Shown: piece after piece, positions 33,685 through 48,985 of the stretch
How the letters are laid out: the number at the start of each line of letters is the position of its first letter
How positions within the stretch are numbered: position 1 is the first letter of the stretch
Origin: Terriglobia bacterium
GTDB taxonomy: Bacteria; Acidobacteriota; Terriglobia; JAJPHL01; JAPKYU01
NCBI GenBank assembly: GCA_965223005.1
Contig: CBDCVK010000002.1
Span: 81,431-145,430 of the forward strand
Reading direction: 5' to 3'
Length of the DNA: 64,000 nucleotides
Translations under genes and position numbers: made by a program
Notes under the pieces: generated by a model
Told to the model about the DNA's origin: nothing
Seen by the model: the letters and a program-made list of their open reading frames with translations, nothing else
The model's database searches: none

Positions 33685-34337
33685 TCAGGCCGGCAGGCCC
33701 AGGTCGTCGGCCAGGCGGCGGCGCTGCTGGTGGATATTCCACCAGAGGTCACGCGTCGCCTGCTGCATCTGGTCCACTTTCTTGCGGCAAGTGGCCAGCA
33801 CCTCGGCGTACTGGGGCGAGCCGGCTACGTTCCGCACCTCTTCCGGGTCCTTCTCCAGGTCGTAAAGCTCCTCGGCCGGGCGCCTCAGGAATGTCTCCAC
33901 CGGGCGCCGGCCCATCATCGTGTGCTTGCGCTTCAGGCTTCCCTGCCAGGTCCGGGACGCGAACAGATCGCTGGGGAAGGGGTAGAGCAATTCCGGGAAC
34001 AGGTTGCGGATGTACTTGTGGCGGCGCGTGCGAATGCCGCGACCTGGGTAATAGTTGATGACCTCGTGGAAAGTGTGCGACAGAAACACCTCATCCCAGC
34101 CTACGGGATTCTCCTGGTTCAGGATGGGCAGCAGCGAGCGACCGTGCACGGGGCCGTACAGAGGCCCGTACAGAGGATAGTCGGGCGGAGGTGCACCGGC
34201 CCAATCCAGACAGGTCGGCAACAGGTCCACAAAGTGGGCCAGGGCCGCATTAACCAGCCCGCGTCGCTTCAGCCGGTGACGGCAGCCAGCGTGGTCCCCC
34301 CGAGACTGTCGAGAAATTCACGACGATTGGTCTGCAT
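33685..34337 (-). pseudogene. Sulfatase pseudogene: Tat signal plus C-terminal third, with an internal deletion and frameshift
   Basis: ATG at 34337 gives MQTNRREFLDSLGGTTLAAVTG* (Tat leader, then a stop). A different frame continues GDHAGCRHRLKRRGLVNAALAHFVDLLPTCLDWAG..GRSLLP..HTFHEV..ELYDLEKDPEEVRNVA, which is the C-terminal sulfatase signature. The total is about 650 bp, whereas a typical sulfatase gene is more than twice that length (my recollection). Confidence 0.65.
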
Positions 34338-34381
34338 AGCAGAATCTCCGCAGGTGTTCGGTTGTGCCTCTCTTCTATTTA

Positions 34382-35641
34382 TTAATGCACGGTCTTACCG
34401 GACTTATCCCAGGGCCTCCATCGCATGGCCTGTAGCGTGTAGCCTCTTCCGGTGGGTCGACCGTCACGTCCAATTTGGCCGTCGCCAGCCACGGTAATGA
34501 TGGCTCCATCCTTGGCCGCTATGGAGCCTGCGTAGCCATGGCCCTTCATAAGGATGTAGAGCTCTGCTTCCCAACTCCGGCCTCCGTCCCGGCTGATGCG
34601 GGCACGCACGTCGCCGCCCTCCGCGTAAGGGTAACGGTTTTCATAAACGGCCACCACCCCTCCTCCTGGAAGTAGTGCCAGGTCGCAGTGAGCTTGACCG
34701 AACACCCGGTTCAGGGTTCGAAAGTTTTTCCACGTTCGTCCGCCGTCGTCTGAATCCGCTAATTGCACAGTCTTTCCCCCTAACCTCGAATTGGGGATTC
34801 CCCGAATTGCGGCCAGCACCCGAAGTCCCCCCAAGGACAACAGTCCCGTTTCCGCAGCCCTATCCGGAATTATGGTGGGATTTCCCCAGGTTTTTCCCTG
34901 GTCGGTACTGCGGAAGAATATCTGAGCGGATCGCCCTGCCTGATCGGCTGGAAAATCGGGGTTATACGCATCAATCGCCGCCAGAAGAGTGCCATCTCCC
35001 AGGGCGATGATGGAATTGCCATCTCCTGCTAAAGCTGCATAGGAAGAAGGAGGAGCTAAGGGCTCGCTGCTCTCCCAAGTTTTGCCTCCATCCCTGGAAC
35101 GAGAAATCACCAGTGGATAGAGTTTGTGTTTTCCAGGTGCTACGGCTGGGTTCTCCACATCCTCGGAGGTCAGGGGCGGCAGTCCACTCGCTCGATGGGC
35201 CACGTAAATATATTGACCGACGACGCCAAAGGCTTGGGCCGAAACGGGCTCCTTTTGTGTGTTCGGCAAGCCCTGGAGTCTCTTGCCAGTCCAGGTTTTC
35301 CCCTCATCTCTTGACCAGTAGAGATAGGTCCCGAACCCGGCGTAGATGGTGCCATCCTTGGTCCGGCCGACCCTGCCATCCAGGCGCCAACTAGATCCGG
35401 GAACGGGCAGTCGCATCCGTTCTGCCGGCAGGATACCGAGGTTTCTGTAGACAGCCTTGAAGTCTCCCTCCTGTTTCATGTTGGTACCCGGCCTCAAGTA
35501 AGGCTCAGCTTCAACCACACGAATCGGATAGTCCAGCAACGGATGGGGATGACTGCTGAGCGAGACGTTCTGTGCCATCAGGCCGCTTGACAAAACAAGC
35601 AGGAGCCCAAGATTGCATATTGACTCTTTTTTAGAATGCAT
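34382..35641 (-). CDS. BNR/Asp-box repeat protein, sialidase-like beta-propeller, secreted
   Basis: Five SxDxGxTW Asp boxes: SRDEGKTWTG, SRDGGKTWES, STDQGKTWGN, SDDGGRTWKN, SRDGGRSWEA. Signal peptide present. No F/YRIP motif seen. Confidence 0.8.
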   Translation of the reverse strand: MHSKKESICNLGLLLVLSSGLMAQNVSLSSHPHPLLDYPIRVVEAEPYLRPGTNMKQEGDFKAVYRNLGILPAERMRLPVPGSSWRLDGRVGRTKDGTIYAGFGTYLYWSRDEGKTWTGKRLQGLPNTQKEPVSAQAFGVVGQYIYVAHRASGLPPLTSEDVENPAVAPGKHKLYPLVISRSRDGGKTWESSEPLAPPSSYAALAGDGNSIIALGDGTLLAAIDAYNPDFPADQAGRSAQIFFRSTDQGKTWGNPTIIPDRAAETGLLSLGGLRVLAAIRGIPNSRLGGKTVQLADSDDGGRTWKNFRTLNRVFGQAHCDLALLPGGGVVAVYENRYPYAEGGDVRARISRDGGRSWEAELYILMKGHGYAGSIAAKDGAIITVAGDGQIGRDGRPTGRGYTLQAMRWRPWDKSGKTVH

Positions 35642-35986
35642 GACTTTGATCCCCTTCTCTCACCCGGATTAGGTTTAGCCGGAATTCCCGATTTAAGCTT
35701 CTCCTGCGCGGGAAAGCGTACGCCACGCGGCCCTGTTGACTCAAGCTCAGATCATCGCTTCCCTCGTGCTACTGCTGCCACTTTCCTCTGGTTGGAACCC
35801 TATCGGGTGGCCGCCCCGATGTTTTGGGTGACCTCTGACTCCTCGAATGATTGGAAGCGGACCTCGTCAAGAGTGATATCCTCAACCGTTCCCTTTTCGC
35901 TCTTCTCTTGACGAGCCAGGTTGTGGTTCGGTACAAGCGTCGGTCCCTATAGAATTATAAGGACCGTATGGAACTTTCAGGACCCT

Positions 35987-37510
35987 ATGGAACTTTCAGG
36001 AATTGATACCTTCACTTTTGTCGCCTTCCTCTGCGCCGTCGTTTCAATCTCCTTGTACGCTTCCCGAAAGGAAGACTCCGCGGAAGACTACTTCCTCGCG
36101 GGAAGAGGCCTCAGCTGGTGGCTCATCGGTTTCTCGCTCATCGCGTCGAACATCTCCACAGAACACTTCATAGGGATGGCGGGGAAAGGGTATGGCTTGG
36201 GCTTGGCCATTGCCAGCTTCGAGTGGCTCTCCGCCCCGGTCCTCGTTTTTATTGCTCTCGTATTGTTGCCGAAGTTCCTGCGCGCCGGGATTTACACGAT
36301 GCCCGAATATCTGGAATACCGCTTCGGGCCAACCGCGCGCTCGATTATGGCCGGTTACTTCATGGTGATGTATGTCGTGGCAGCCATGGCGGGCGTCCTC
36401 TACTCGGGTGGGCTCGCCCTGCAAAGCATTTTTGGCGTCGACCTCTACTTGGGCGTCTGGATGATTGGAATCCTGGCGGGTGCCTATACGGTCTATGGAG
36501 GGCTGAAGGCCGTCGTTTGGTCGGACCTTATTCAGGGAATCACCCTTCTCTTCGGCGGTGCCATTGTCATGGTCATCGGGCTTTCCAAGGTCGGAGGCCT
36601 CGGATCATTTCTCGCAGTGAATGAAGACAAACTTCACCTCGCGCTCCCCCACGACCACCCCGAGTATCCTTGGACCATCCTTCTTCTGGGAATGTGGATA
36701 CCGCAGCTGGGATACTGGGGATTCAACCAGTTCATCACGCAGCGAACCCTTGCCGCTAAGAGTCTTTTACAGGGACAGAAAGGCGCGCTTTTCGCCGCAT
36801 TTCTGAAACTCTTAATTCCCTTGTTTGTCGTCTTTCCTGGAATCATGGCCGCTCAACTCTACGGCGCAGAAATCCAACAAGGTGATCTGGCGTTTCCTTT
36901 TCTCATCAAGAAGCTGCTGCCCGTCGGGTTGAGAGGGATTATTTTTGCGGCGCTTCTGGGGGCAGTGATGAGTTCTCTGGATTCCATGCTCAACTCGGCT
37001 TCCACAATCTTCACCATCGACATCTACAATCGCCACTTTGTGAAAGGCCACGTTGGGGGCCGTCAGTTGATCACGGTCGGTCGCATTGCAACCGCCGTCT
37101 TTGTCATTTTCGCGTGCATTCTTGCTCCGGAATTGCGCCACTCCAAGTCTATCTACGATTACATGCAGCAGGTCTGGAATTTTGTCTGGCCGGGAACTGT
37201 CGCAGTGTTCTTTCTGGGGATTTTCTACCAGCGGGTACCGCAGGGTGCGGCGGTGCTGGGAATGTTGTTTTCCCCTCTCGCATACGCCGTCAGCTTCCTG
37301 GTATTCGATGTGGTTTTCCTCAACGCTTCAGCTATCGCGCTTATCCTCACGTGCTTGGTGATGCTCGCCTACACCTGGTGGAGACCTCTCACCGAAGTCA
37401 AGAAGCTCCCTGTCCGCGCAGATATTGATCTAAGGACAACCCCGCAAATCAAGGTCGTCGGCGGGATACTCGTCCTGGTGACCGTCGCGATCTACATCTA
37501 CTTCTGGTGA
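35987..37510 (+). CDS. Sodium:solute symporter (SSS/SLC5 family)
   Basis: MELSGIDTFTFVAF..EDYFLAGRGLSWWLIGFSLIASNISTEHFIGMAGKGY and about 13 hydrophobic segments. The track ORF begins at TTG 35921, but ATG at 35987 is preferred. Confidence 0.85.
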   Translation: MELSGIDTFTFVAFLCAVVSISLYASRKEDSAEDYFLAGRGLSWWLIGFSLIASNISTEHFIGMAGKGYGLGLAIASFEWLSAPVLVFIALVLLPKFLRAGIYTMPEYLEYRFGPTARSIMAGYFMVMYVVAAMAGVLYSGGLALQSIFGVDLYLGVWMIGILAGAYTVYGGLKAVVWSDLIQGITLLFGGAIVMVIGLSKVGGLGSFLAVNEDKLHLALPHDHPEYPWTILLLGMWIPQLGYWGFNQFITQRTLAAKSLLQGQKGALFAAFLKLLIPLFVVFPGIMAAQLYGAEIQQGDLAFPFLIKKLLPVGLRGIIFAALLGAVMSSLDSMLNSASTIFTIDIYNRHFVKGHVGGRQLITVGRIATAVFVIFACILAPELRHSKSIYDYMQQVWNFVWPGTVAVFFLGIFYQRVPQGAAVLGMLFSPLAYAVSFLVFDVVFLNASAIALILTCLVMLAYTWWRPLTEVKKLPVRADIDLRTTPQIKVVGGILVLVTVAIYIYFW

Positions 37511-37782
37511 GTTGGGGGCATGTGTGGACCTGCGTTTGCCATTGGGAGCGTTGAGGCAAGTGGCAGGAATCATGCCGATTCCCATGCAGCCGCAGACTGT
37601 TAGCCAACTAGGCTTGACAAGACTTTGCCGGGGCGTTGCCAACTTTAAGCTCCGCCTTGTCCCCTCTATTGATTGTCGATAGAATGCCCCTGCGATGGCA
37701 GGCTTTACTGCCCAACTGTCGCCCTTGCCCTCGGTCCCCGGCGTGTGACGGCGGCAAATCATTGGTGCTAGGAAGAATTCTT

Positions 37783-38763
37783 ATGGATCGAGAGAAAGCC
37801 CGAAATCGCCTTTCCGGGTGCTACGTGACGGTTCCAACCATGTTCCGCGACGAAGATCTGGCAGTAGACCTGGAGGCCACCCGGCAGCATGTCCGGTTTC
37901 TGATTGATGGAGGCATCAATGAAAGCACCGGCGTCATACTCGCCGTCGGGGCGGCGGGCGATTTTCCCGTGATGAGTTTCGATGAGCGCTTGCGAGTGGC
38001 CGAAGCGATTATCGAGGAAGCGGACGGCAGGATTGCCGTTGTGATGGGTGCGCAGACAACAAATACTCGGGAGCTAGTTGAACTGGTCCGCGCTGCCGAG
38101 CGGCTCGGTGCCGAGTATGTGCAGGTTTCGCCGCCCTACTACCACATGCACACGGAGGAAGATTTTTACGAATACGCAGTGGCGGCAGCAGAAGCCGCAG
38201 ACATAGGAATCGTGGTCTACAACACCTTCTGGACGAGCCAGAACGTCTCGCTGAAGATGATTGAACGGCTTTGCGAGCTGCCCAACCTGGTCGGCCTCAA
38301 ATGGGCCGTGCCCACCGCGAACTTCATGGAATCAGAACAGGTTATTTCTCGTTTCGCGGATCGGCTCTGTATCATCGACAACCAGCTTCGGTTCGTGACC
38401 AGCCACATCCTCGGCGCTCGGGGCATCGAGGTTCACATCTGCAACTACTGGCCTCAGTGGGGGGTGCGGCTCTGGAATCTTCTGGAGAACCAGGAGTACG
38501 TCGACGTGCAGAAGGAACTCGTCAGTGTCGCCATGCCCTTCTACACTCTTTGGAAGGAGATGATGGACTACACCGGTGGCGACGGCTATCTGGACAAGTT
38601 GTGCATGGAACTAGTTGGCCTGCCCTCCAGCCGCTGTCGTCCACCGACGCGCGACGTTCGCGAAAAGTTTCGGGAGCGAGCCCGTCAGATGCTGATCGAG
38701 TGTGGCGTTCCGGGCATCGTTGATGCCCCTGCTCGGGAGGAAAGCGCGCGCCGAGCTTCATGA
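37783..38763 (+). CDS. Dihydrodipicolinate synthase / N-acetylneuraminate lyase family class I aldolase
   Basis: ATG at 37783 follows AGGAAG. Features: ..TVPTMFRDEDLAVDLEATRQHVRFLIDGGI..GVILAVGAAGDF..FDERLRV..VSPPYYH..LVGLKWA (Schiff-base Lys region). Confidence 0.75.
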   Translation: MDREKARNRLSGCYVTVPTMFRDEDLAVDLEATRQHVRFLIDGGINESTGVILAVGAAGDFPVMSFDERLRVAEAIIEEADGRIAVVMGAQTTNTRELVELVRAAERLGAEYVQVSPPYYHMHTEEDFYEYAVAAAEAADIGIVVYNTFWTSQNVSLKMIERLCELPNLVGLKWAVPTANFMESEQVISRFADRLCIIDNQLRFVTSHILGARGIEVHICNYWPQWGVRLWNLLENQEYVDVQKELVSVAMPFYTLWKEMMDYTGGDGYLDKLCMELVGLPSSRCRPPTRDVREKFRERARQMLIECGVPGIVDAPAREESARRAS

Positions 38764-39953
38764 ATGTGCACACCATGCCGCTTTTCTGGACGCCGCTCTT
38801 TAAAATAAGTTTTCTAGCCTCTACGCTGTTGCTGCTGGGCCTCCTGGGGAGCTGCCGCCAATTGGATAACGAAGGTAAGGAAATCGAAGGCAAGAACCCT
38901 CCCGTTTTTGAGCAGGTGACGGTGTTTTCTGCCGGGGAGGCCGGCTATCGCTGTTTTCGAATACCGGCTCTAGTCGTTACAGCAGAGGGAACAATTCTGG
39001 CCTTCGCGGAAGCTAGGAAAGCAATTTGCAGCGATGACGCGGAGATCGACCTCGTGCTCAAACGAAGTTTCGATGGGGGAAAGACGTGGCAGGACCTGAG
39101 GGTGCTGTTTGACTATGGTTCGGAGGCGGTCAATCAGCCAGCGCCAGTGCTGGACCGACATACTGGCGAGGTCGTGCTGGTATTCTGTAGGAATAACCAG
39201 CGTGTCTTTGTCACGAAAACCGGGAACGACGGGGTCACCTGGTCCGAGCCAGTGGAGATCACCGAGGATGTCGCCGACCCCGAATGGAGCTATTTCGGGA
39301 GTGGTCCGGGTCATGGCATCCAACTGAGCAGCGGGAGACTTCTGGTTCCGAGCTGGGGAGATACGAGCCCGGGCCCGGCACCCTGGCCCAAACCGAACTG
39401 GGGCGCAAAGCAGTTTTCTTACGCGATGTATAGCGACGACCACGGGGTCACTTGGAAGCGTGGCGGCTCCTTAGATATGGACCTGTCGGATGAGGCCATG
39501 GCCGTCGAAACCGCAGACGGTTCCGTTTATATGAACATGCGCAGCCGCCAGGAAAAGAAGATGCGGGCCTTCGCCTGGAGTAAGGACGGTGGCGTCACCT
39601 GGTCGAAGGTGCAATTTGATCAAAGCCTGCCTGAGCCGTCTTGTCAGGGGAGTTTGATTCGCTTCACCGACCAAGAGCGGTTCTCGAAGAATCGTGTGCT
39701 GCTTGCTCATCCCTCCAGCCAAACTGAGAGAAAACAGCTCACCGTGCGGATGAGCCTCGACGAATGCAGGACGTGGCCTGTCTCGAAAGTCCTTTACGAG
39801 GGTTCGGCGGCGTACTCTGATCTGGCGATCGCTAATGATAGGACCATCCTTTGCTTGTACGAAGCCGACCAATACTCCAAGATGGTGCTGGCCCGCTTCA
39901 ATTTGGAATGGCTGACCGACGGAGCCGATTCGTTGCAACCCACAGTTCAATAA
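38760..39953 (+). CDS. Exo-alpha-sialidase (GH33-type) with lipoprotein-like signal
   Basis: The start overlaps the upstream stop (ATGA). FRIPALVVTAEGTILAFAEAR is the F/YRIP motif. Asp boxes: SFDGGKTWQD, TGNDGVTWSE, SDDHGVTWKR, SKDGGVTWSK, SLDECRTWPV. Leader ..LLLLGLLGSC. Confidence 0.85.
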   Translation: MNVHTMPLFWTPLFKISFLASTLLLLGLLGSCRQLDNEGKEIEGKNPPVFEQVTVFSAGEAGYRCFRIPALVVTAEGTILAFAEARKAICSDDAEIDLVLKRSFDGGKTWQDLRVLFDYGSEAVNQPAPVLDRHTGEVVLVFCRNNQRVFVTKTGNDGVTWSEPVEITEDVADPEWSYFGSGPGHGIQLSSGRLLVPSWGDTSPGPAPWPKPNWGAKQFSYAMYSDDHGVTWKRGGSLDMDLSDEAMAVETADGSVYMNMRSRQEKKMRAFAWSKDGGVTWSKVQFDQSLPEPSCQGSLIRFTDQERFSKNRVLLAHPSSQTERKQLTVRMSLDECRTWPVSKVLYEGSAAYSDLAIANDRTILCLYEADQYSKMVLARFNLEWLTDGADSLQPTVQ

Positions 39954-40033
39954 TCGAAACCAACTCGGACCTCGTTCCACTACGGCCGGGAGCGCCTACG
40001 AAGAGGCGTCTAACTTTCGAGTATCCTTGATTT

Positions 40034-41389
40034 ATGCCGATCCGAGTCAGTAGCTTGACGCCGGTTCCAACAGAGCCGGTCGAGACCAGATACCGCCGAA
40101 TTCGTACACCGATCCCCGTCCCAGAATCGATTGAGTTGATTGAGCGTCTGCGAAAGGTAGAAGCTCGGTCGATTCACGGTATGCCCCCGGTCGTTTGGCA
40201 CCAAGCCGAGGGCTTTCTCATCCGGGACCCTTACGGTAACCAGTGGATCGACCTGACGAGTGGCACCGTGATGGCCAACTCGGGCCACTGTCATCCGCGG
40301 GTGGTGCAGGCGATTCGGGATCAGCTCGACTCCGGGCTCATTTTCACTTATGCATTTCCTGCGGAGGTCCGCGAACGCGCACTCCAGCGCATCGCGTCAA
40401 TTGCACCGCCCGGACTGGACAAAGCCATCCTGTTTTCCTCGGGGACCGAGGCGACCGAATGTTGCATGAGCCTGATGAGGAAACATGGCTTGGCAATATC
40501 GCCGAACAAGGTTGGCATCCTTTCCATTGAAAGCTCTTACCATGGCCGAACGCTCTCTGCAAAATTCGCAGGCGGTTCGCCGGGACGCGCAGACGGCCTG
40601 GATCGCGCGTCCGTTGATCAGACACAACTCCCCATTCCGGGAGGTGCGGAATCCCAAGGCTTCGAAGCTGACTTGGAGCAGAGCGGGGTCCACCCGGAAA
40701 CCATAGCGGGCATTATTTTGGAATCCATTCCTGGCTACTCAACGACTCCGTATCCTCAGGGATACATGGATGAGTTGATGCGCTGGGCGCAAAAACAAGG
40801 GGCGCTCGTCGCGGTGGACGAAGTGCAGGCTGGCATCGGTCGTACAGGCCACTGGTTTGCTTTTGAGCACTACGGCATTACGCCGGATCTAATCGCCTGC
40901 GGCAAAGGTTTGAGCTCTACCCTTCCGGCTTCGGCGGTTATTGGACGAAAAGAGGTCATGGATCTGGCGGAGCCAGGTGAAATGTCAAGCACGTTCGGGG
41001 GAAATCCTGTGAGTGCCGCGGCTGTGCTGGCAAATCTCGACGTCATGCAGGATGAGAAGCTCGTGGAACAATCGGCTGCGTTGGGGCAACAACTGGGTGA
41101 CATTCTTCGGAAGAAGACGGAGAAATACGGCCACTACGTGAGTAGGCCGGAGGGGCGTGGACTGTTTTACTCCCTTCATCTGAAGGATCCTGAGACAGCG
41201 GAACCCTTAGCCGAACTTTGCGATGAGATGGCATTGGAGTGTGTGCGAAGGGGAGTCATGTTATTCGTTACCGGCAGAGGGTTCCTCAAGTTCACGCCGC
41301 CTCTGAGCATCGAGCAGGACGCTCTGGTAGAAGCGGTGGATGTGGTGGGCAGTGTCATCGACGAGATGCTGCCGCAAGCCCCCACCTAG
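40034..41389 (+). CDS. Class III (acetylornithine/GABA-type) PLP aminotransferase
   Basis: 451 aa. Features: ANSGHCHPRVVQAI, SGTEATECCM, VDEVQAGIGRTGHWFAFEHYGITPDLIACGKGLSS. Confidence 0.85.
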   Translation: MPIRVSSLTPVPTEPVETRYRRIRTPIPVPESIELIERLRKVEARSIHGMPPVVWHQAEGFLIRDPYGNQWIDLTSGTVMANSGHCHPRVVQAIRDQLDSGLIFTYAFPAEVRERALQRIASIAPPGLDKAILFSSGTEATECCMSLMRKHGLAISPNKVGILSIESSYHGRTLSAKFAGGSPGRADGLDRASVDQTQLPIPGGAESQGFEADLEQSGVHPETIAGIILESIPGYSTTPYPQGYMDELMRWAQKQGALVAVDEVQAGIGRTGHWFAFEHYGITPDLIACGKGLSSTLPASAVIGRKEVMDLAEPGEMSSTFGGNPVSAAAVLANLDVMQDEKLVEQSAALGQQLGDILRKKTEKYGHYVSRPEGRGLFYSLHLKDPETAEPLAELCDEMALECVRRGVMLFVTGRGFLKFTPPLSIEQDALVEAVDVVGSVIDEMLPQAPT

Positions 41390-41403
41390 CAGAGGAAGTA
41401 ACG

Positions 41404-42162
41404 ATGAATACAAATCTTTTTTCCGTCAAAGACAAGGTCGTCATTGTCACAGGTGCCAGCCGTGGCATCGGCCGCGTCGTTGCCGAAGCGTTTCTGGATT
41501 ACGGATCGCGTGTCGTCTTTGTCGCGCGATCGGCCGATATGGTCGAGCGCGTGCGTCAGCAGCCCGCAGAACGGGCACTCGCTATCCAATGCGATGTTGC
41601 AGGACCGGGTGCGGCTGAGCGAATCCGAGACGCTACGGTGAGCAAATTCGGCCGAATCGACGTCCTCATAAATAACGCGGCAATCGCTTTGGGCGGAGAA
41701 GATCCCTACGCTGAAGAAACTTGGGACCGAACACTCAACGTGAATCTTCGCTCAGTCTTCTTGTTGAGCCGCGACGTCATCGCCGTGATGAAACAACAGG
41801 GCAGCGGTTCAATCATCAATTTCTGCAGTGTGGCAGCCCTGCTCGGATTTCCCGATAATCCGTCTTACCAGGCCGCCAAGGGAGGGCTTCGTCAGCTCAC
41901 CAAGGCAATGGCCCGGGATTATGCGCAGCACAACATCCGCATCAACAACATCTTCCCGGGCTACTACCTGACCGCCATGACGGCCGCGAGCTGGGCCGAT
42001 CCAGTGAAACGGGCCGCGCGTTCGAGCCGATCAATGATGGAGCGTTGGGGTAAACCTGAGGAGTTGGTCGGCCCCTGCATCTTTTTCGCCTCGGAGGCGT
42101 CGGCATATATTACCGGCTGTGACTTGCCCGTCGACGGCGGTTGGACCGCGAAGGGAATCTAG
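41404..42162 (+). CDS. Short-chain dehydrogenase/reductase (SDR)
   Basis: ATG at 41404 follows GAGGAAG. Features: VIVTGASRGIGR, NNAA, YQAAKGG (YxxxK). Confidence 0.88.
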   Translation: MNTNLFSVKDKVVIVTGASRGIGRVVAEAFLDYGSRVVFVARSADMVERVRQQPAERALAIQCDVAGPGAAERIRDATVSKFGRIDVLINNAAIALGGEDPYAEETWDRTLNVNLRSVFLLSRDVIAVMKQQGSGSIINFCSVAALLGFPDNPSYQAAKGGLRQLTKAMARDYAQHNIRINNIFPGYYLTAMTAASWADPVKRAARSSRSMMERWGKPEELVGPCIFFASEASAYITGCDLPVDGGWTAKGI

Positions 42163-42283
42163 GGCGAACGTCAAGCTGGACCCCGCCGCTTGGGTCAAGC
42201 AGAAACCTACAGACGCTTCAACTTGCGAAGGGTTTCGTCACGATTTGTTATAACGGCAGAGCATCAGCGAAAGGCTGATAACT

Positions 42284-43792
42284 GTGGATTCTCCAACTGG
42301 GTTCGGCACTTTGAATTACGTGGTCCTGTTTACCTATCTGGCCATGATGGTCAGCGTCGGAGCCCTGTTCGCCAGGAAACAGAAGACGAGCGAAGATTAC
42401 TTCCTGGCAGGCCGCAGGATGCCATGGCTGGTGGTAGGCATGAGCATGTTTGCCTCCATCACGAGTGCCATTTCCTACATGGGAATTCCAGGGACGGCGT
42501 ACAGAGAGAATATCGCGCTCCTCATGGTAGCGTTTCTCGCCCCGATTGTCGCTCCGATTCTGATCTTCGTCTTCTATCCCTTCTATCGTCTCTTGAACGT
42601 GACGACCTCATACGAGTATGTGCTGCAGCGCTATGGGCAACCGGCCCGGCTGACGGTCTCTGGCCTTTTCGTACTGGCCCGGGTAGGGTGGCTTGGCGCA
42701 GTTATCTATGCGCCGGCTCTGGCGCTTTCCACCGTCACCGCGATTCCGCTTTGGTTGGCGATTTTCCTGATGGGAATTCTTGCCACCGCTTACACTGCAT
42801 TGGGCGGCCTTTCCGCTGTGTTATGGACGGATCTCGTGCAGTTTCTGGTCCTGGTTGGGGGAGCCTTGTGGGTGGCCCTCACCCTGACGGCTTCGGTCCC
42901 TGGTGGCCTGGCTTCCATATGGGAGATCGCTCGGACGACAGATCACGTGCGCGTCATCGACTGGAGGTTCAGCCTCACGGAAATGACAGGAATCGCCGTG
43001 CTCGTTTCCTATTTCTTCCAACTCATGCACGATTACGGCGCCGACCAAGTCACCGTGCAACGACTCCTGGCGGTGAAGACGTTTCGCGGCATGGCCAAGG
43101 CCACCATTTTCTTTGCTGTGGCCGAACTGTTCATGGTGAGCTTGCTGCTCTACGTGGGCCTTGGGCTGTTCGCCTACTTCCAAACGTTTCCTTCTGAACT
43201 GGCGGCAGGAATCACCGGCGACCGGGTGCTCCCTTACTACATCATACACGCGCTTCCGCAGGGCGTTTCCGGTCTGTTGATCACTGCAATCTTTGCGGCC
43301 GCGATGTCCAGCGTGGATTCGGGGATCAATTCCGTGGCGACCGTTCTCATCAACGACTTCGTTCGCCCGCTACGCACCAGGGCGCGTAGCGAGCAGCATG
43401 ATGTAAAACTCGCTCGGCTTCTGACCCTGCTCCTCGGAAGCTTTGCGACCGTCGTTGCATTCTATGTCACAGGCGTAGGTCAGATTCTCAAGGCTTCGTC
43501 TGCGTTTCTGGGTTTGTTTGGCGGGCCGATCCTGGCCTTGTTTCTATTGGGAATGCTCACCAAACGAGTCAACTTTCGTGGTTGGCTCATCGGCCTGGGG
43601 GTCGCCGTCCCCACGACGTTTTGGCTTCAACAAGGGACCGACCTGCATTTCATCTACTACTTCCCAGTCTGTTTTGGTGGCTGCGCTGGGGTCGGCTACG
43701 TCGCCAGTCTGCTCCTCGGCACTACGCACGGCGGACCCCTCGGACGAGCTGAACTCACGCTTTGGGGCCGGCCTCGACTGTCTGAGACATAG
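42284..43792 (+). CDS. Sodium:solute symporter (SSS family), second copy in the locus
   Basis: 502 aa. Features: ..SEDYFLAGRRMPWLVVGMSMFASITSAISYMGIPGTAY.. with multiple TM segments. Only distantly related to 35987..37510. Confidence 0.85.
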   Translation: MDSPTGFGTLNYVVLFTYLAMMVSVGALFARKQKTSEDYFLAGRRMPWLVVGMSMFASITSAISYMGIPGTAYRENIALLMVAFLAPIVAPILIFVFYPFYRLLNVTTSYEYVLQRYGQPARLTVSGLFVLARVGWLGAVIYAPALALSTVTAIPLWLAIFLMGILATAYTALGGLSAVLWTDLVQFLVLVGGALWVALTLTASVPGGLASIWEIARTTDHVRVIDWRFSLTEMTGIAVLVSYFFQLMHDYGADQVTVQRLLAVKTFRGMAKATIFFAVAELFMVSLLLYVGLGLFAYFQTFPSELAAGITGDRVLPYYIIHALPQGVSGLLITAIFAAAMSSVDSGINSVATVLINDFVRPLRTRARSEQHDVKLARLLTLLLGSFATVVAFYVTGVGQILKASSAFLGLFGGPILALFLLGMLTKRVNFRGWLIGLGVAVPTTFWLQQGTDLHFIYYFPVCFGGCAGVGYVASLLLGTTHGGPLGRAELTLWGRPRLSET

Positions 43793-44002
43793 GCCCAGGC
43801 GTCCTTGCTTGGTTTGCTTTGAGCCGGTTGCTTTGAACTGATTGCATTGAGTTGGCTGCTTTGATTTCGCTAAGCTTCCGGAGATAAGATCTACAGGTCG
43901 GCCCGCAGAAACGCAATTTGCAGGGCTGGGGTCGGAGCAACAGAGAACCTTAAGATCGGTTACCGAGGTTTGCAAGCATATCGACTGCACAGAGGTGCCT
44001 CC

Positions 44003-45175
44003 ATGCCAGGAACAATGAGTCGGCGCCAGGTATTGGGCGCGGGTATTGCAGCGGGGCTGGTGTTGGGGCTAAAGCGGCACGGTGTTGCGGTGCCGCGAGT
44101 CCAGGTCGATCCCAATAGCGTCATCAGCCTGCAGCCGGACCTGTACCACGGTTGGCCTACGATAACTCGTCGCCGCAACGGCGAGCTGCTGCTGGTCTAT
44201 TCCGGGGGGCGCGAGGCACACGTGTGTCCGTTCGGGCGGGTGGAGTTAATGCGGTCCAAGGACGAGGGGCATACCTGGAGTTGGCCATGCGTGCTGTGGG
44301 ACAGCGCCATCGACGATCGCGATGCAGGAGTACTGGAAACCGCCAAGGGCACGATCCTAGTGACGACTTTCACCTTCCTGGGGTATGAATCGATCTTGAG
44401 ACAAGCGGAGAAGATGGAACCCTCTCAGAAGGGTGCGTGGTCCAGAGAAAAACTCCGACGCTGGCGGGCAGCACTACGGCGCCTGGACGCGGCACAGCGC
44501 GAAGCCCTATTGGGTGGTTGGATGATCCGTTCAGTTGACGGCGGCGGCAGCTGGTCGGCGCCATATCGCTGCCCAGTCAACAGTCCTCACGGACCCATTC
44601 AGCTTTCCGACGGCCGCCAACTTTATGCCGGCAAGCAGATGGGCTACGGCACGGGGCGGATCGGCGTATGCGAGTCCACCAACGACGGGCAAACCTGGCG
44701 TTGGCTGGCAGAAATCCCTACCCGAGCCGGAGATAGCCGCAAGCACTATCACGAACTGCACGCTGTTGAAGCGGCCGAAGGTCGGCTGATCCTCCACATC
44801 CGCAACCAAAACCAAGCCAACGACAGGGAAACACTTCAAAGCGAATCGTCTGACGGAGGCAAGACCTGGTCAGTCCCACACCCCATCGGCGTATGGGGGC
44901 TGCCATCTCACTTGCTGCGGCTGAAGGATGGGCGGCTGCTGATGAGCTATGGCCACCGCCGCCCACCACTGGGCAATCAGACTCGTCTGAGCGAAGACCA
45001 TGGTCGCACCTGGTCGGAGCCAATGATCATTTCCGACGACGGCACGTCCACCGACCTGGGTTATCCATCTACCGTGCAGCTTGACGATGGCTCGTTACTC
45101 ACCGTGTGGTACGAGCTGATGGAAGGGTCGCCAAAAGCGCTGCTCCGGCAGGCACGATGGCGAATAGCAGGCTGA
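44003..45175 (+). CDS. BNR/Asp-box repeat protein, sialidase-like, Tat signal
   Basis: MPGTMSRRQVLGAGIAAGLVLG. Asp boxes: SKDEGHTWSW, SVDGGGSWSA, STNDGQTWRW, SSDGGKTWSV, SEDHGRTWSE. The track ORF starts at 43970. Confidence 0.8.
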   Translation: MPGTMSRRQVLGAGIAAGLVLGLKRHGVAVPRVQVDPNSVISLQPDLYHGWPTITRRRNGELLLVYSGGREAHVCPFGRVELMRSKDEGHTWSWPCVLWDSAIDDRDAGVLETAKGTILVTTFTFLGYESILRQAEKMEPSQKGAWSREKLRRWRAALRRLDAAQREALLGGWMIRSVDGGGSWSAPYRCPVNSPHGPIQLSDGRQLYAGKQMGYGTGRIGVCESTNDGQTWRWLAEIPTRAGDSRKHYHELHAVEAAEGRLILHIRNQNQANDRETLQSESSDGGKTWSVPHPIGVWGLPSHLLRLKDGRLLMSYGHRRPPLGNQTRLSEDHGRTWSEPMIISDDGTSTDLGYPSTVQLDDGSLLTVWYELMEGSPKALLRQARWRIAG

Positions 45176-45216
45176 CCCGCCAACTTTCCGTCTCAGCATG
45201 TATTCGTGAGCCTGAT

Positions 45217-45823
45217 TTATTTGAGCCGATCGGATCCATCGGTCAGCCACGCCAAGTTGAACCGGGCGAACGTTATCTTCCCGTAAGGGTGTTCCCGGCC
45301 ACGCTCGTACAAGCATCCGATGGTATTGTCGGGAAGCACGGTCAATCCCGAGTAAGCGGACTGCACTTCGTTGAGCAACTTGCCCACTGGCCAGGTCTTG
45401 CCTTCGTCGTAGCTCATGCGCACCGTCATTTTGACCCGGTCGTCCTTGCTGGCGGGATCGGAGAACAGCAAGCGGTCTTTGTCGTGCGTCTTTGCGTGAG
45501 TGTAGCGGGCGTGAGTGTAGCGAAGGAAGCTGGCCTGGCAGGTCGGCTCAATCAGCGTCTCATCGAACTGGAGGTCGGTCCATGTCTGGCCGCCGTCCCG
45601 GCTCCGGGCGGTGGCGCGCTTGCCTCCTTTTTCGGGCTGATTTCCATCGTGCTCCCAGTAGTTGCGCATGTTCACGAGCAGCGATCCGTCGGCTGCTCCA
45701 GGAGCGGCCCCTCGGCCAGAAGCGGCCTCTCGGGAGGTAGGGCCCCGGCTGCTAGCAAAACTACCGCTGCCAAGACGATGCACCAACGAATCGCTTTTCT
45801 CATCCTGCTCATGAGCTCACCTT
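45217..45823 (-). pseudogene. Sialidase pseudogene: signal peptide plus C-terminal about 150 aa, with an internal deletion and frameshift
   Basis: ATG at 45823 gives MSRMRKAIRWCIVLAAVVLLAAGALPPERPLLAEGPLLEQPTDRCS*. Another frame continues ADGSLLVNMRNYW..SRDGGQTWTDLQFDETLIEPTCQASFLRY..KMTVRMSYDEGKTWPV..YSGLTVLPDNTIGCLYE..ARFNLAWLTDG. That stretch aligns with residues from about 245 to the end of the sialidase at 38760..39953. Confidence 0.7.
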
Positions 45824-45940: not shown

Positions 45941-47407
45941 TTACGCCAGAACCGGTTTCACCACTTTGGCAGGCTCGACGCCGGTCAGCTTCGCCTCCAG
46001 CCCCTGGTGCCTGTAGGTGAACCGTTCGTGGTCAATGCCGAACAGGTGCAGGAGCGTCGCCTGGAAGTCGCGAACGTGGACGGGGTCCCTGACGATGTTG
46101 TAGGAGAAATCGTCCGTTTCGCCGTAGACGACTCCGCCCCTGATGCCGGCGCCTGCCATCCAGATGCTGAAGCAGCGCGGATGATGGTCGCGGCCGTAGT
46201 CGGTGAGCGTGAGCTTACCTTGGGAGTAGACCGTACGGCCGAACTCGCCGCCCCACACCACCAGCGTGTCGTCAAACAGGCCGCGCTCCTTCAGGTCCTG
46301 CACCAGCGCCCAGCAGGGCTGATCGACAGCCCTGCACTGGCCCGGCAGCACTTCAGGCACATTCCTGTGCACGTCCCAACCGCGATGGTAGATCTGCACG
46401 AAACGCACGCCGCGTTCAATCAGCCGCCGCGCCATCAGTAAGCTATAGGCGACCGTACCCGCCTCCCGCGCATCTTCTCCATAGCGCTTGTAGGTGCTCT
46501 CCGGCTCGCTGGCAAGGTCACTCATCTCCGGCACCGACGCTTGCATCCGGAAGGCCATCTCGAACTGCTCGATCCGCGCCAGCGTCTCCGGATCACCGAT
46601 CTTCTGGTGCTGGATTTGATTCAGCGCACTCAGACCATCCAGCATACGCCGCCGGATCTGCTGGGGAACTCCTTCGGGGTTCTTGACGTAGAGGACCGGG
46701 TCGGCGCCCGCGCGCAGAGCTACGCCCGCGTGCTCGGCCGAGAGGAAACCTGCGCTCCAAAGACGCGTCGAAATCGCCTGCACGGCCGCCTTGCGGTGGC
46801 CACGCTTCGCGTTCATCACCACGAACGTGGGCAAATCTCGGTTCATGCTGCCCAGACCGTAGGCGAGCCAGGAGCCGATGCAGGGAAGACCTGCGATCAT
46901 CCGGCCGGTTTGGATAAACGTGATGGCCGGCTCGTGGTTGATCGCCTCGGTATGCATGGAACGAACGATCGCCATGTCATCGGCCATCTTAGCGATGTTC
47001 GGAAGAAGGTCCGAGATCCATGCACCGCTCTGGCCGTGCTGGTGAAATTCCCAGACCGGAGGGGCAATCGGGAAGCGTACTTGGCCGGAGGTCATGGTCG
47101 TCAGGCGCTGCCCCTTTCGAATCGAATCGGGCAGTTCCTTGCCGTACAAGTTCTTCAGGTTGGGCTTGTAGTCGAACAGGTCCATCTGCGGCGGCGCGCC
47201 CATGGTATGGAGATAGATCACCCGCTTGGCTTTGGGCGCGAAATGCGGCAAGTGAGGCAGTCCTCCGTAGGCCTCCGCCCCTTTCGAATCGCCTTTCGCC
47301 TCCTCGGCAACGAGGCTGGCCAACGCGAGCGCACCAAGCCACTGGCCGCCACGAGCGAAGAACTGCCGCCGGGTTTCGGTCAGAATGGCTTCTTTTGATG
47401 GATGCAT
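45941..47407 (-). CDS. DUF1501 protein (Tat signal), distal copy of the tandem pair
   Basis: 488 aa. Features: TRRQFFARGGQWLGALALASL, HRGWDVH, GGEFGRTVYSQG..GRDHHPRCFS. Confidence 0.9.
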   Translation of the reverse strand: MHPSKEAILTETRRQFFARGGQWLGALALASLVAEEAKGDSKGAEAYGGLPHLPHFAPKAKRVIYLHTMGAPPQMDLFDYKPNLKNLYGKELPDSIRKGQRLTTMTSGQVRFPIAPPVWEFHQHGQSGAWISDLLPNIAKMADDMAIVRSMHTEAINHEPAITFIQTGRMIAGLPCIGSWLAYGLGSMNRDLPTFVVMNAKRGHRKAAVQAISTRLWSAGFLSAEHAGVALRAGADPVLYVKNPEGVPQQIRRRMLDGLSALNQIQHQKIGDPETLARIEQFEMAFRMQASVPEMSDLASEPESTYKRYGEDAREAGTVAYSLLMARRLIERGVRFVQIYHRGWDVHRNVPEVLPGQCRAVDQPCWALVQDLKERGLFDDTLVVWGGEFGRTVYSQGKLTLTDYGRDHHPRCFSIWMAGAGIRGGVVYGETDDFSYNIVRDPVHVRDFQATLLHLFGIDHERFTYRHQGLEAKLTGVEPAKVVKPVLA

Positions 47408-47518: not shown

Positions 47519-48985
47519 CTACGCCAGAATCGGTTTCACGACTTTGGCGGGCTCGACGCCGGTTAGCTTCGCCTCCAGCCCCTGGTGCCTGTAGGTGAAC
47601 CGTTCGTGGTCAATGCCGAACAGGTGCAGGAGCGTCGCCTGAAAGTCGCGAACGTGGACCGGGTCCCTAACGACGTTATAGGAGAAATCGTCCGTTTCGC
47701 CGTAGACGACTCCACCCTTGATACCGGCGCCAGCCATCCAGATGCTGAAGCAGCGCGGATGATGGTCGCGGCCGTAGTCGGTGGGCGTGAGCTTACCCTG
47801 GGAGTAGACCGTACGGCCGAACTCGCCGCCCCACACCACCAGCGTGTCGTCAAACAGGCCGCGTTCCTTCAGGTCCTGCACCAGCGCCCAGCAGGCCTGG
47901 TCCACATCCTGGCACTGGCGCGGCAGCACCTGGGGCGCAAGCTTGTGCACGTCCCAACCGCGATGGTAGATCTGCACGAAACGCACGCCGCGTTCAATCA
48001 GCCGCCGCGCCATCAGTAAGCTATAGGCGACCGTACCCGCCTCCCGCGCGTCTTCTCCATAGCGCTTGTAGGTACTCTCCGGCTCGCTGGCGAGATCACT
48101 CATCTCCGGCACCGACGCTTGCATCCGGAAGGCCATCTCGAATTGCTCGATCCGCGCCAGCGTCTCCGGATCACCGATCTTCTGGTGCTGGATTTGATTC
48201 AGCGCACTCAGACCATCCAGCATACGCCGCCGGATCTGCTGGGGAACTCCATCGGGATTCTTGACGTAGAGGACCGGGTCGGCGCCCGCGCGCAGAGCTA
48301 CGCCTGCGTGCTCGGCCGAGAGGAAACCTGCGCTCCAAAGACGCGTCGAGATCGCCTGCACGTTCGCCCTCGGGTGACTATGTTTCGCGTTCATTACCAC
48401 GAACGTGGGCAAATCCCGGTTCATGCTGCCCAGACCGTAGGCGAGCCAGGAGCCGATGCAGGGAAGACCCGCGATCATCCGGCCGGTTTGGATAAACGTG
48501 ATGGCCGGCTCGTGGTTGATCGCCTCGGTGTGCATGGAACGAACGATCGCCATGTCATCGGCCATCTTTCCGATGTTCGGCAGAAGGTCGGAGATCCATG
48601 CGCCGCTCTGGCCGTGCTGGTGAAATTCCCAGACCGGAGGGGCAATCGGGAAGCGCGCCTGGCCGGCGGTCATGGTTGTCAGGCGCTGGCCCTGCCGAAT
48701 CGAATCGGGCAGCTCCTTGCCGTACAAGCCCTTCAGCTTGGGCTTGTAGTCGAACAGGTCCATCTGCGGCGGCGCACCCATGGTATGGAGATAGATCACC
48801 CGCTTGGCTTTGGGCGCGAAATGCGGCAAGTGGGGCAATCCTCCGTAGGCCTCCGCCCCTTTCGGACTGCCTTTCGCCTCCTCGGCAACGAGGCTGGCCA
48901 GCGCGAGCGCACCAAGCCACTGGCCGCCGCGAGCGAAGAACTGCCGCCGGGTTTCGGTCAGAATGGCTTCTTTCGATGGATGCAT
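47519..48985 (-). CDS. DUF1501 protein (Tat signal), proximal copy of the tandem pair
   Basis: 488 aa, with about 25 substitutions relative to 45941..47407 by eye. Confidence 0.9.
   Translation of the reverse strand: MHPSKEAILTETRRQFFARGGQWLGALALASLVAEEAKGSPKGAEAYGGLPHLPHFAPKAKRVIYLHTMGAPPQMDLFDYKPKLKGLYGKELPDSIRQGQRLTTMTAGQARFPIAPPVWEFHQHGQSGAWISDLLPNIGKMADDMAIVRSMHTEAINHEPAITFIQTGRMIAGLPCIGSWLAYGLGSMNRDLPTFVVMNAKHSHPRANVQAISTRLWSAGFLSAEHAGVALRAGADPVLYVKNPDGVPQQIRRRMLDGLSALNQIQHQKIGDPETLARIEQFEMAFRMQASVPEMSDLASEPESTYKRYGEDAREAGTVAYSLLMARRLIERGVRFVQIYHRGWDVHKLAPQVLPRQCQDVDQACWALVQDLKERGLFDDTLVVWGGEFGRTVYSQGKLTPTDYGRDHHPRCFSIWMAGAGIKGGVVYGETDDFSYNVVRDPVHVRDFQATLLHLFGIDHERFTYRHQGLEAKLTGVEPAKVVKPILA

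Follow-up and report, generated by a model that had tools for sequence, protein, structure and literature searches.

Sialic-acid catabolism has been worked out almost wholly in host-associated bacteria and for N-acetylneuraminic acid (Neu5Ac). The closest described systems to the locus treated here are the nan clusters, i.e., nanATEK-yhcH of Escherichia coli and the SiaT clusters of Proteus and Staphylococcus. A locus with a related set of genes was found at positions 33685-45823 of a 64,000-nt stretch of DNA (hereafter the window) from a Terriglobia bacterium (Acidobacteriota; assembly GCA_965223005.1, contig CBDCVK010000002.1, positions 81,431-145,430 of the forward strand). It shares with the nan clusters a GH33 sialidase for cutting off the acid, a putative importer of the SiaT family, and a Schiff-base enzyme of the DHDPS/N-acetylneuraminate lyase (NAL) family. 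However, the putative lyase is not NanA by score, tree, or substrate-binding residues, and no NanK, NanE, AGE epimerase, or NagA/NagB is linked to it; a class III pyridoxal phosphate (PLP) enzyme of the aminotransferase type (AT) and a short-chain dehydrogenase/reductase (SDR) are present instead.

Since a novel aldolase clade together with the AT and the SDR replaces the textbook downstream enzymes, we speculated that the substrate and the route are probably not the known ones. We propose that the locus carries a self-contained, horizontally mobile cassette for the harvest and breakdown of a sialic-acid-like 2-keto-3-deoxy (ulosonic) acid, with a wiring unlike that of the known nan clusters, and we give this proposal an even chance of being correct. 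Our best guess at the substrate is an ulosonic acid that carries an amino substituent or differs from Neu5Ac in some other way.

The five-gene block and its products

The strongest argument for a joint function is that five genes appear to have been transferred as a unit. Window positions 37655-43792, which span the genes for the lyase, the sialidase, the AT, the SDR, and the second of two SSS transporters (SSS2), aligned by blastn to contig C1 of the genome G190 (L107, 6920-13043) in a single collinear stretch of 6151 nt with 88.9% identity. The shared block had its left end 128 nt ahead of the lyase gene and its right end exactly at the stop codon of SSS2; the first transporter gene (SSS1) and the genes for two propeller proteins, BNR1 and BNR3, were outside it. 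The order lyase, sialidase, AT, SDR, and SSS2 was kept in G190 with 84-94% protein identity (L001). G190 belongs to a different family of the same phylum, and its housekeeping DapA is 47% identical to that of the source genome (G000, 96% complete, with the window on its contig C2). The GC content of the locus was 56.8% compared to 61.6% for the genome, which placed it in the 1st percentile of 10-kb windows. The close DNA match to a distant genome and the low GC content suggest that the five genes are a recently transferred unit.

The lyase protein scored far below the cut-offs of the NCBIfam models (bits obtained/cut-off), namely KdgD (TIGR03249, 96.6/373.95), DapA (TIGR00674, 76/206), and NanA (NF003164, 78.7/281; TIGR00683, 65.6/382). 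A database search returned hundreds of relatives of 66-78% identity beyond its own lineage (Chloroflexota, Acidimicrobiales, Gaiellaceae, Latescibacteria, and others), for which the annotation went no further than 'dihydrodipicolinate synthase family protein'. The clade was present in at least 428 species-level genomes, and its members were 60-78% identical across seven phyla. We built a maximum-likelihood tree of 34 sequences, comprising 17 clade members, NanA, DapA, YagE, and YjhH of E. coli, both paralogues of the source genome, six Acidobacteriota NanA-like proteins, two KdgD proteins above the cut-off (435-444 bits), and three paralogues from related loci. The window lyase fell into a clade of its own (support 100/98), apart from NanA, DapA, YagE/YjhH, and KdgD on a backbone that did not resolve, and a Gemmataceae paralogue was the sole outsider to join this clade. 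E. coli NanA and the six NanA-like proteins formed one clade (100/99), and the bona fide KdgD proteins of two Acidobacteriota were in a distant one. Branches within the lyase clade were short (0.06-0.34 changes per site) compared to those elsewhere (about 1 or more). The DHDPS/NanA-family 'aldolase' listed in an earlier note on this DNA is present, and its phylogenetic placement is not with DapA.

Of the three DHDPS-family genes in the source genome, that on contig C10 falls into one group with E. coli DapA and is a separate, true DapA. The third (C2, 385565-386530; L086, 7566-8531) is DapA-like with 171.8 bits, below the cut-off of 206, and adjoins an NHL-repeat propeller gene. No protein at the NanA equivalog cut-off was found by a profile search in 201 Acidobacteriota genomes (this tally and the one over 400 genomes given below for the AT include the unpublished G049 and G024, and no specific claim rests on either).

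The lyase resembles E. coli NanA (TIGR00683/NF003164) in its TIM-barrel fold, its Schiff-base Lys, and its Tyr/Tyr relay. In the lyase alignment, the equivalents of NanA K165, Y137, and Y110 were kept, and K173 and Y120 of A1 were invariant in the clade. However, the two proteins are approximately 20-25% identical, and the lyase sits in a different clade, whose members have diverged from one another very slowly. It carries GAAGD, preceded by a four-residue insertion, where the family has G(S/T)TGE (GSTGE in NanA), and the NanA sugar-binding residues D191/E192/S208 are replaced by Asn/Gln/His. The motif Thr was changed to Ala throughout the clade. The predicted structure was a TIM barrel with a pLDDT of 87.5, and a fold search did not discriminate among DapA, NAL, MosA, YagE, and KdgD structures (20-27% identity); none of the solved structures searched was of a clade member. 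We propose that the enzyme is a Schiff-base lyase that would act on the sugar acid freed by the sialidase.

The sialidase translation contains a lipobox (LLGSC), the segment CFRIPAL, and five Asp boxes, and the BNR_2 and BNR_3 domains cover its full length. The best solved relative was the Micromonospora viridifaciens sialidase (1eur/1eus; E-value of 2e-42 for 1eur), in which the segment YRIPAL aligns to CFRIPAL. The HMMER alignment with 1eur brought all six catalytic residues into register, i.e., the FRIP Arg, a nearby Asp, the Glu, two further Arg, and the nucleophile Tyr, as well as the Asp boxes. The segments VETADG...NMRSR, TVRMS, and AAYSDL matched VELSDG...NSRDS, TIRMS, and MSYSTL of 1eur, with Asp residues in the loop after FRIP. 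R67, D92, E250, R261, and Y352 were invariant in the sialidase orthologs (n = 10), and R330 was nearly so. By these features the gene encodes a bona fide GH33 exo-sialidase, which is predicted to be an exported lipoprotein. It differs from the M. viridifaciens enzyme in being single-domain, without lectin or immunoglobulin modules.

BNR1 has a signal-like N-terminal segment and is predicted to be exported; Pfam BNR_2 covers its C-terminal half only. Its hhalign alignment to the GH33 profile (97% probability) was limited to the last blades, where two C-terminal Arg and the Tyr were kept; there was no FRIP, and the Glu was out of register. BNR3 has a twin-arginine N terminus (RRQVLG) and aligned to the GH33 profile with 99.7% probability. 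The Glu, two Arg, and the Tyr were kept (E251, R267, R319, and Y354 were invariant in the set A2), with a Trp at the position of the FRIP Arg and no conserved Asp in the acid/base loop. Both proteins are thus predicted to adopt the sialidase fold, but since neither has a full catalytic set (arginine triad and acid/base Asp), they were not filed as GH33 sialidases.

The nearest relative of BNR3 in sequence (E-value of 6e-28) and predicted fold (TM-score of 0.72-0.77) was Dfer_1899 of Dyadobacter fermentans (5hx0), a structural-genomics protein of unknown function. Unlike most relatives that stand beside the lyase clade (in Chloroflexota and Actinomycetota), which lack a signal peptide, BNR3 is predicted to be exported by the twin-arginine translocation system. 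Signal-less BNR3-like propellers stood beside the lyase clade in L003, L012, L016, L024, L026, L044, L056, L063, L067, L070, and L077. Propellers of this kind, as in Chloroflexota, Actinomycetota, and Dongiaceae, would act intracellularly on an imported compound.

The two transporters belong to different subfamilies. The nearest structure to SSS1 was the Vibrio vSGLT (2xq2; E-value of 1e-101), and its score against PRK10484 (vSGLT/YidK sugar type) was 410.7 bits, above the cut-off of 401; it probably imports a neutral sugar. The nearest structure to SSS2 was the Proteus mirabilis SiaT (5nv9; E-value of 1e-79). SiaT holds Neu5Ac via Thr58, Ser60, Thr63, and Gln82 plus a salt bridge to Arg135, and the Gln82 and Arg135 mutants show no transport (PMC5931594). 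In SSS2, Ser60 was kept and Thr63 was replaced by Ser, whereas Thr58, Phe78, and Gln82 differed, Thr58 being Ile and Gln82 being Ala. The SiaT Arg135 aligned to a Trp, and an invariant Arg was displaced to three positions earlier. The signature Ser, Ser, Arg133, and Trp136 was common to every SSS gene beside the lyase clade, and SSS2 orthologs of 70-91% identity flanked the clade in L001, L002, and L007. On this evidence, SSS2 could plausibly carry an acidic sugar, but probably not Neu5Ac bound in the manner of SiaT.

The source genome contains four class III genes. One of them, the AT, scored below the cut-offs of all NCBIfam equivalogs. Its nearest structures were gamma-aminobutyrate transaminases (E-value of 2.5e-54), and its identity to E. 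coli GabT was approximately 29%. It keeps the PLP-binding residues K268, D239, and Q242 of GabT, as well as R141. GabT R398, which binds the alpha-carboxylate of 2-oxoglutarate, is a Lys (LKFTPPL) in all AT orthologs, and their EPVQGEGG motif loop (GabT E211) is four residues shorter. The SDR has the motifs of a classical SDR (cofactor site VTGASRGIG and catalytic pair SYQAAK), and its nearest structures were HpsO (8wwf), BacC, gluconate 5-dehydrogenase, and KduD. We propose that the AT is a divergent class III PLP enzyme that would strip the sugar acid, or its cleavage product, of an amino group, and that the SDR is a keto-reductase or dehydrogenase paired with it. Since the two genes lie within the shared block, are adjacent, and recur beside GH33 sialidases or the lyase clade in several independent lineages, we consider that they belong to the system.

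Neighbourhoods of the lyase clade and of the aminotransferase

One genome per species was scanned for the lyase clade, which gave 428 loci, and the best 80 were examined together with flanks of up to 10 kb to either side. All 80 came from metagenome-assembled genomes of seven phyla. Open reading frames (ORFs) in related loci were called heuristically and clustered, and representatives were annotated; the tblastn panels miss distant propellers. A sialidase-fold propeller was found within 10 kb of the lyase in 29 of the 54 loci of at least 15 kb, i.e., in Acidobacteriota (9/11), Actinomycetota (10/11), Pseudomonadota (3/4), Planctomycetota (3/5), and Chloroflexota (4/22). Lyase and propeller are strongly linked in four phyla, but not in all cases.

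In Bryobacterales and other Acidobacteriota (L004-L006, L009, L011, and L014), a sialidase of 64-71% identity was directly upstream of the lyase, and in Planctomycetota (L010 and L013) the two genes were divergent neighbours. The other members of the block recurred in several orders: AT (63% identical)-SSS-lyase in L021, paralogue-SDR-AT (52%)-lyase in L060 (Gemmataceae), and SDR-SSS2 (72%)-lyase in L007. The row in Actinomycetota consisted of a GntR/FCD regulator, an ATP-binding cassette (ABC) importer with a family-5 substrate-binding protein, a signal-less BNR3-like propeller, and the lyase, often with an aldehyde dehydrogenase; the regulator and importer of this row presumably resemble those of actinobacterial nan clusters. 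In Chloroflexota and Dongiaceae, the lyase was followed by a sugar-type ABC importer and two cytoplasmic BNR3-like propellers, and sometimes by Ldh_2. The neighbours in Dehalococcoidia were PhyH dioxygenases, acyl-CoA dehydrogenase, and GDSL hydrolase, and PhyH-family dioxygenases occurred in lyase-clade loci of Acidimicrobiales as well.

A soluble family of approximately 550 residues without a Pfam or PDB match (fam42) was found beside the lyase clade and the SDR-AT pair in up to five tandem copies (L017, L020, L042, L045, L060, L145, L152, and L180). It may be a very divergent propeller, as a language-model search placed BNR_2 clusters nearest to it (score of 0.92), which we take as a lead only.

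When E. coli NanK and NanE and the source genome's own NagA and ROK kinase were used as tblastn queries, no match was found in the 80 related loci. The source genome itself has no NanE and no AGE-type epimerase; its only NagA is on another contig (C8), and a weak ROK match is likewise on another contig. No NanR-type regulator was found in the locus. The earlier note had raised the idea of an unusual pathway and had named beforehand two findings that would refute it, canonical nanK, nanE, or nagA genes beside conserved versions of the locus and a firm clustering of the aldolase with DapA. Such genes were not found in the 80 loci, the lyase grouped apart from DapA, and the neighbourhood comparison over seven phyla supported the unusual-pathway interpretation. 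Our literature search returned nothing relevant on this gene combination, on sialidases in Acidobacteria or SAR202, or on alternative sialic-acid pathways.

Among 400 Acidobacteriota genomes, AT orthologs of at least 53% identity were found only in G190, G385, and G250. The C1 contig of G190 carries the AT-SDR pair twice (L106, 8587-10755; L107, 9289-11414), approximately 26 kb apart and in opposite orientation, with one copy within the cassette and one alone. G250 has a sialidase (56% identical) and a NanM-like Kelch protein, and a BNR_2 gene is directly upstream of its AT; G385 has an SDR and, at a distance of 7 kb on the far side of insertion sequences, a GH33 sialidase. IS21-type elements (Mu-transposase C-terminal/rve plus IstB) are directly beside the AT orthologs of G250 and G385 (L109, 11591-14076; L108, 11391-15876), where they interrupt apparent sialidase-AT clusters. 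In the plasmid collection, AT relatives were found only at less than 35% identity.

Metagenome neighbourhoods of the AT comprised 56 loci with orthologs of at least 48% identity. An SDR adjoined the AT ortholog in 20 of them, and SDR relatives of 44-49% identity were among such neighbours. AT orthologs of at least 52% identity stood beside the lyase clade in L001, L021, L060, L145, L152, and L180, the lyase following SDR-AT in the last three, and AT orthologs stood beside GH33 sialidases in G250, G385, L132, L135, L138, and L167. Other recurrent neighbours were a glyoxalase-fold protein, DAO flavoproteins, GFO/IDH/MocA proteins, an aldo-keto reductase, a xylose-isomerase-like barrel, an alpha/beta hydrolase, a P450, and an HpcH/HpaI class II pyruvate aldolase. 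The class II aldolase occurred in AT loci from which the DHDPS-like gene was absent, which fits a pathway ending in the cleavage of a 2-keto-3-deoxy acid. In our interpretation, the AT and the SDR form a conserved unit of two enzymes in catabolic clusters of the carbohydrate type, often, but not always, together with sialidases and a pyruvate aldolase of either class.

The source genome has a second sialidase locus on contig C5 (240672-244201; L090, 8673-12202), where a BNR_assoc_N sialidase has a class IV aminotransferase, scoring below the IlvE cut-offs, and an SDR immediately after it; this SDR shares 38% identity with the one in the window. We considered this locus as a parallel module; however, relatives of the class IV enzyme of approximately 50% identity in eight other Acidobacteriota genomes were not beside sialidases or SDRs, and the locus was not used as support.

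Gene row of the locus

The gene row was built from the ORF listing and from Pfam and NCBIfam scans (Table 1).

Table 1. Features of the locus in window coordinates
Feature	Position	Strand	Match or remark
Sulfatase C-terminal relic	33685..34337 (ORF 33685-34230)	-	SGSH_C/Sulfatase_C match, C-terminal ~40 residues only
BNR1 propeller	34382-35641	-	Pfam BNR_2; divergent from main gene row
SSS1, SSF transporter	35921/35987-37510	+	Pfam SSF, NCBIfam PRK10484
Five-gene block (lyase, sialidase, AT, SDR, SSS2)	37655..43792	+	Collinear blastn match to G190
DHDPS-family lyase-clade protein	37783-38763	+	Pfam DHDPS, 115 bits
GH33 sialidase, predicted lipoprotein	38760-39953	+	Pfam BNR_2, 109.8 bits; BNR_3, 76.2 bits
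Class III aminotransferase (AT)	40034-41389	+	Pfam Aminotran_3, 273.9 bits
SDR oxidoreductase	41404-42162	+	adh_short, 181 bits; adh_short_C2, 194 bits
SSS2, SSF transporter	42284-43792	+	Nearest structure SiaT 5nv9
BNR3 propeller	43970/44003-45175	+	Pfam BNR_2, 84.7 bits
Relic of fourth BNR propeller	45217-45786	-	ORF of 189 residues; BNR_2 C-terminal match, 31.7 bits

The start of the lyase gene is Met50 of an ORF beginning at 37636, and that of the SDR gene is Met56 of an ORF beginning at 41239. The sulfatase ORF was regarded as a relic since BNR1, directly upstream, leaves no room for a sulfatase catalytic domain. In the relic at the right edge, the BNR_2 match lies at positions 126755-127123 of contig C2 (minus strand), i.e., at 45325-45693 of the window. 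The lyase stop overlaps the sialidase start by 4 nt in an ATGA at 38760-38763, and translational coupling of these two genes is predicted. Between the AT stop and the SDR start there are 14 nt, and the remaining gaps are 80, 121, 210, and 272 nt. A terminator-like hairpin (43795-43812) lies between SSS2 and BNR3, and a consensus promoter scan of the locus gave matches at chance level. In two metatranscriptome runs, low-depth contigs matched parts of each gene in the row at 90-98% identity. Since these contigs came from a relative and DNA carry-over is possible, they were not taken as transcription.

The inventory in the earlier note agreed with ours: every gene that it listed was recovered in the Pfam and NCBIfam scans. 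One bona fide GH33 sialidase with FRIP and five Asp boxes, two further BNR propellers without FRIP, two unrelated SSS transporters, and the ATGA overlap were all found as it had described them, and the locus likewise holds no kinase, epimerase, or deacetylase ORF. Its description of the genes as tightly packed holds for lyase/sialidase and for AT/SDR, but not across the other gaps. Likewise, the interval that it took as the locus does contain the gene row, but both ends are gene relics (sulfatase and BNR_2) rather than working parts.

Several further features of the window were observed. Two tandem DUF1501 genes of equal length (488 residues; 45941-47407 and 47519-48985, minus strand) indicate a head-to-tail duplication, with a PSCyt1/PSCyt2/PSD1 gene (49013-52231) upstream of them. 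An NHL-repeat propeller gene (28846-29871, minus strand) is upstream of the locus. Contigs from public runs were without 18 nt at window position 33461 and without 15 nt at 45497, suggesting that short in-frame tandem duplications at these two sites are polymorphic in the population.

Proposed route and alternatives

In the proposed route, the exported lipoprotein sialidase would free the acid from extracellular glycans, possibly assisted by the two degenerate propellers that flank the block, and the SiaT-like SSS2 would import it. The cytoplasmic lyase-clade enzyme would then bind the acid via its conserved Lys, forming a Schiff base at C2, and would most likely split it into pyruvate and an aldose. 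The class III PLP enzyme and the SDR would replace the ManNAc (N-acetylmannosamine) kinase/epimerase/deacetylase branch by converting an amino group to a keto group and then to a hydroxyl, with either the uncleaved sugar acid or the amino-aldose left by cleavage as the substrate. The vSGLT-like SSS1 probably imports neutral sugars exposed by the same attack. In aminoglycosides, a sugar amine is turned into a ketone, and the ketone into a hydroxyl, by enzyme pairs of the KanJ/KanK type or by aminotransferase/reductase pairs. The two-step logic proposed for AT and SDR is the same, by analogy only; KanJ has no homology to the AT, and the KanJ/KanK pair is biosynthetic, whereas the window context is catabolic.

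The conversion of an amine to a hydroxyl fits the missing kinase, epimerase, and deacetylase, as well as the families that replace AT and SDR elsewhere (PhyH dioxygenases, DAO, Ldh_2, aldehyde dehydrogenase, and aldo-keto reductase). In its fullest form, the proposal would be an undescribed catabolic route for amino-substituted ulosonic acids, in which the AT and the SDR convert the amine to a hydroxyl and the new class I aldolase clade splits an acid like ketodeoxynononic acid (Kdn) or ketodeoxyoctonic acid (Kdo) to pyruvate and a plain aldose, bypassing the ManNAc kinase, epimerase, and deacetylase, and in which the degenerate propellers are glycosidases for non-Neu5Ac acids. We consider it unlikely that all of this holds. 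Candidate substrates for such a route are de-N-acetylated neuraminic acid, nonulosonic acids of the legionaminic/pseudaminic type, and Kdo8N-like sugars.

Several observations weigh against the cassette proposal. The best NCBIfam match of the lyase, although far below the cut-off, is KdgD, which is a dehydratase and not an aldolase, and the lost Thr of the G-S/T-T-G-E motif could mean an altered chemistry. Propellers were found in only a few of the long Chloroflexota loci, and the neighbours in such loci are PhyH dioxygenases, P450, acyl-CoA dehydrogenase, and GDSL hydrolase. The cassette contains no N-deacetylase, though one would be required for an N-acetylated substrate. Furthermore, many AT-ortholog loci have neither sialidase nor lyase, and GFO/IDH/MocA, DAO, aldo-keto reductase, and xylose-isomerase-like genes are found there instead; the AT may thus serve a broader class of amino sugars.

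The first two of these observations would suit a different chemistry, in which the DHDPS-like enzyme is a dehydratase/deaminase of the KdgD, L-2-keto-3-deoxyarabonate (L-KDA) dehydratase, or pyrroline-4-hydroxy-2-carboxylate deaminase type. It would make a semialdehyde from a 2-keto-3-deoxy acid or a cyclic imino acid, and the semialdehyde would then be transaminated by the AT, reduced by the SDR, or oxidized by an aldehyde dehydrogenase. The nearest relatives of the AT are GabT, ArgD, and OAT, and these enzymes act on semialdehydes; moreover, the gene directly after the clade member encodes an aldehyde dehydrogenase in L003, L026, and L067 and is an Ldh_2 gene in L027 and L079. The substrate could still come from the sialidase, e.g., de-N-acetylated neuraminic acid, which cyclises to a hydroxypyrroline carboxylate. 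Nevertheless, we regard this explanation, the main rival to the cassette proposal, as doubtful. The clade was well apart from bona fide KdgD in the tree, and YagE (GSGGE), a true aldolase, is also without the motif Thr, so that the loss is compatible with aldol cleavage. Furthermore, the substitution of a class II pyruvate aldolase in other AT loci speaks for a shared final step of aldol cleavage.

An ordinary Neu5Ac locus would require a divergent NanA, ManNAc handled by unlinked or unrecognised enzymes, and the AT and the SDR as passengers, and we consider it improbable. Such a locus would agree with the canonical GH33 nature of the sialidase, with the homology of SSS2 to SiaT, in which two carboxylate-binding Ser/Thr positions and a nearby Arg are kept, with the NagA elsewhere in the genome, and with the NanM-like Kelch mutarotase that adjoins the sialidase ortholog in G250. 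However, the NanA scores of the lyase are far too low, its NanA sugar-binding residues are replaced, and its clade is outside the NanA group, in which the Acidobacteriota NanA-like proteins are included. The absence of NanE/AGE epimerase from the genome, where the only kinase candidate is the weak ROK match, also speaks against ordinary Neu5Ac breakdown, as does the finding that the AT and the SDR are carried along with the block and that other lineages again combine them with these genes. In addition, SiaT Gln82, the Ala of SSS2, is needed for Neu5Ac transport (PMC5931594).

A chance juxtaposition in a decaying island with no common function would account for the relics at both edges, the atypical GC content, the IS21-type elements beside the AT orthologs of G250 and G385, and the wider intergenic gaps (80-272 nt), but it is highly improbable, as all eight genes have intact frames and conserved catalytic residues, the five-gene order is kept at such DNA identity in a distant genome, and the pairwise linkages recur across phyla.

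The reading that we prefer is a cassette for a sialic-acid-like ulosonic acid, with a chemistry after import that departs from the canonical one. To our knowledge, the genes by which environmental bacteria consume Kdn, Kdo, and many bacterial nonulosonic acids are largely unassigned. The lyase clade, the matching subgroup of SiaT-related carriers, the AT-SDR pair, and the propellers with incomplete sites provide leads to them, all of which are open to expression and assay. Moreover, the five genes occur as a nearly identical block in two Acidobacteriota that are only distantly related, which shows the trait moving as a unit.

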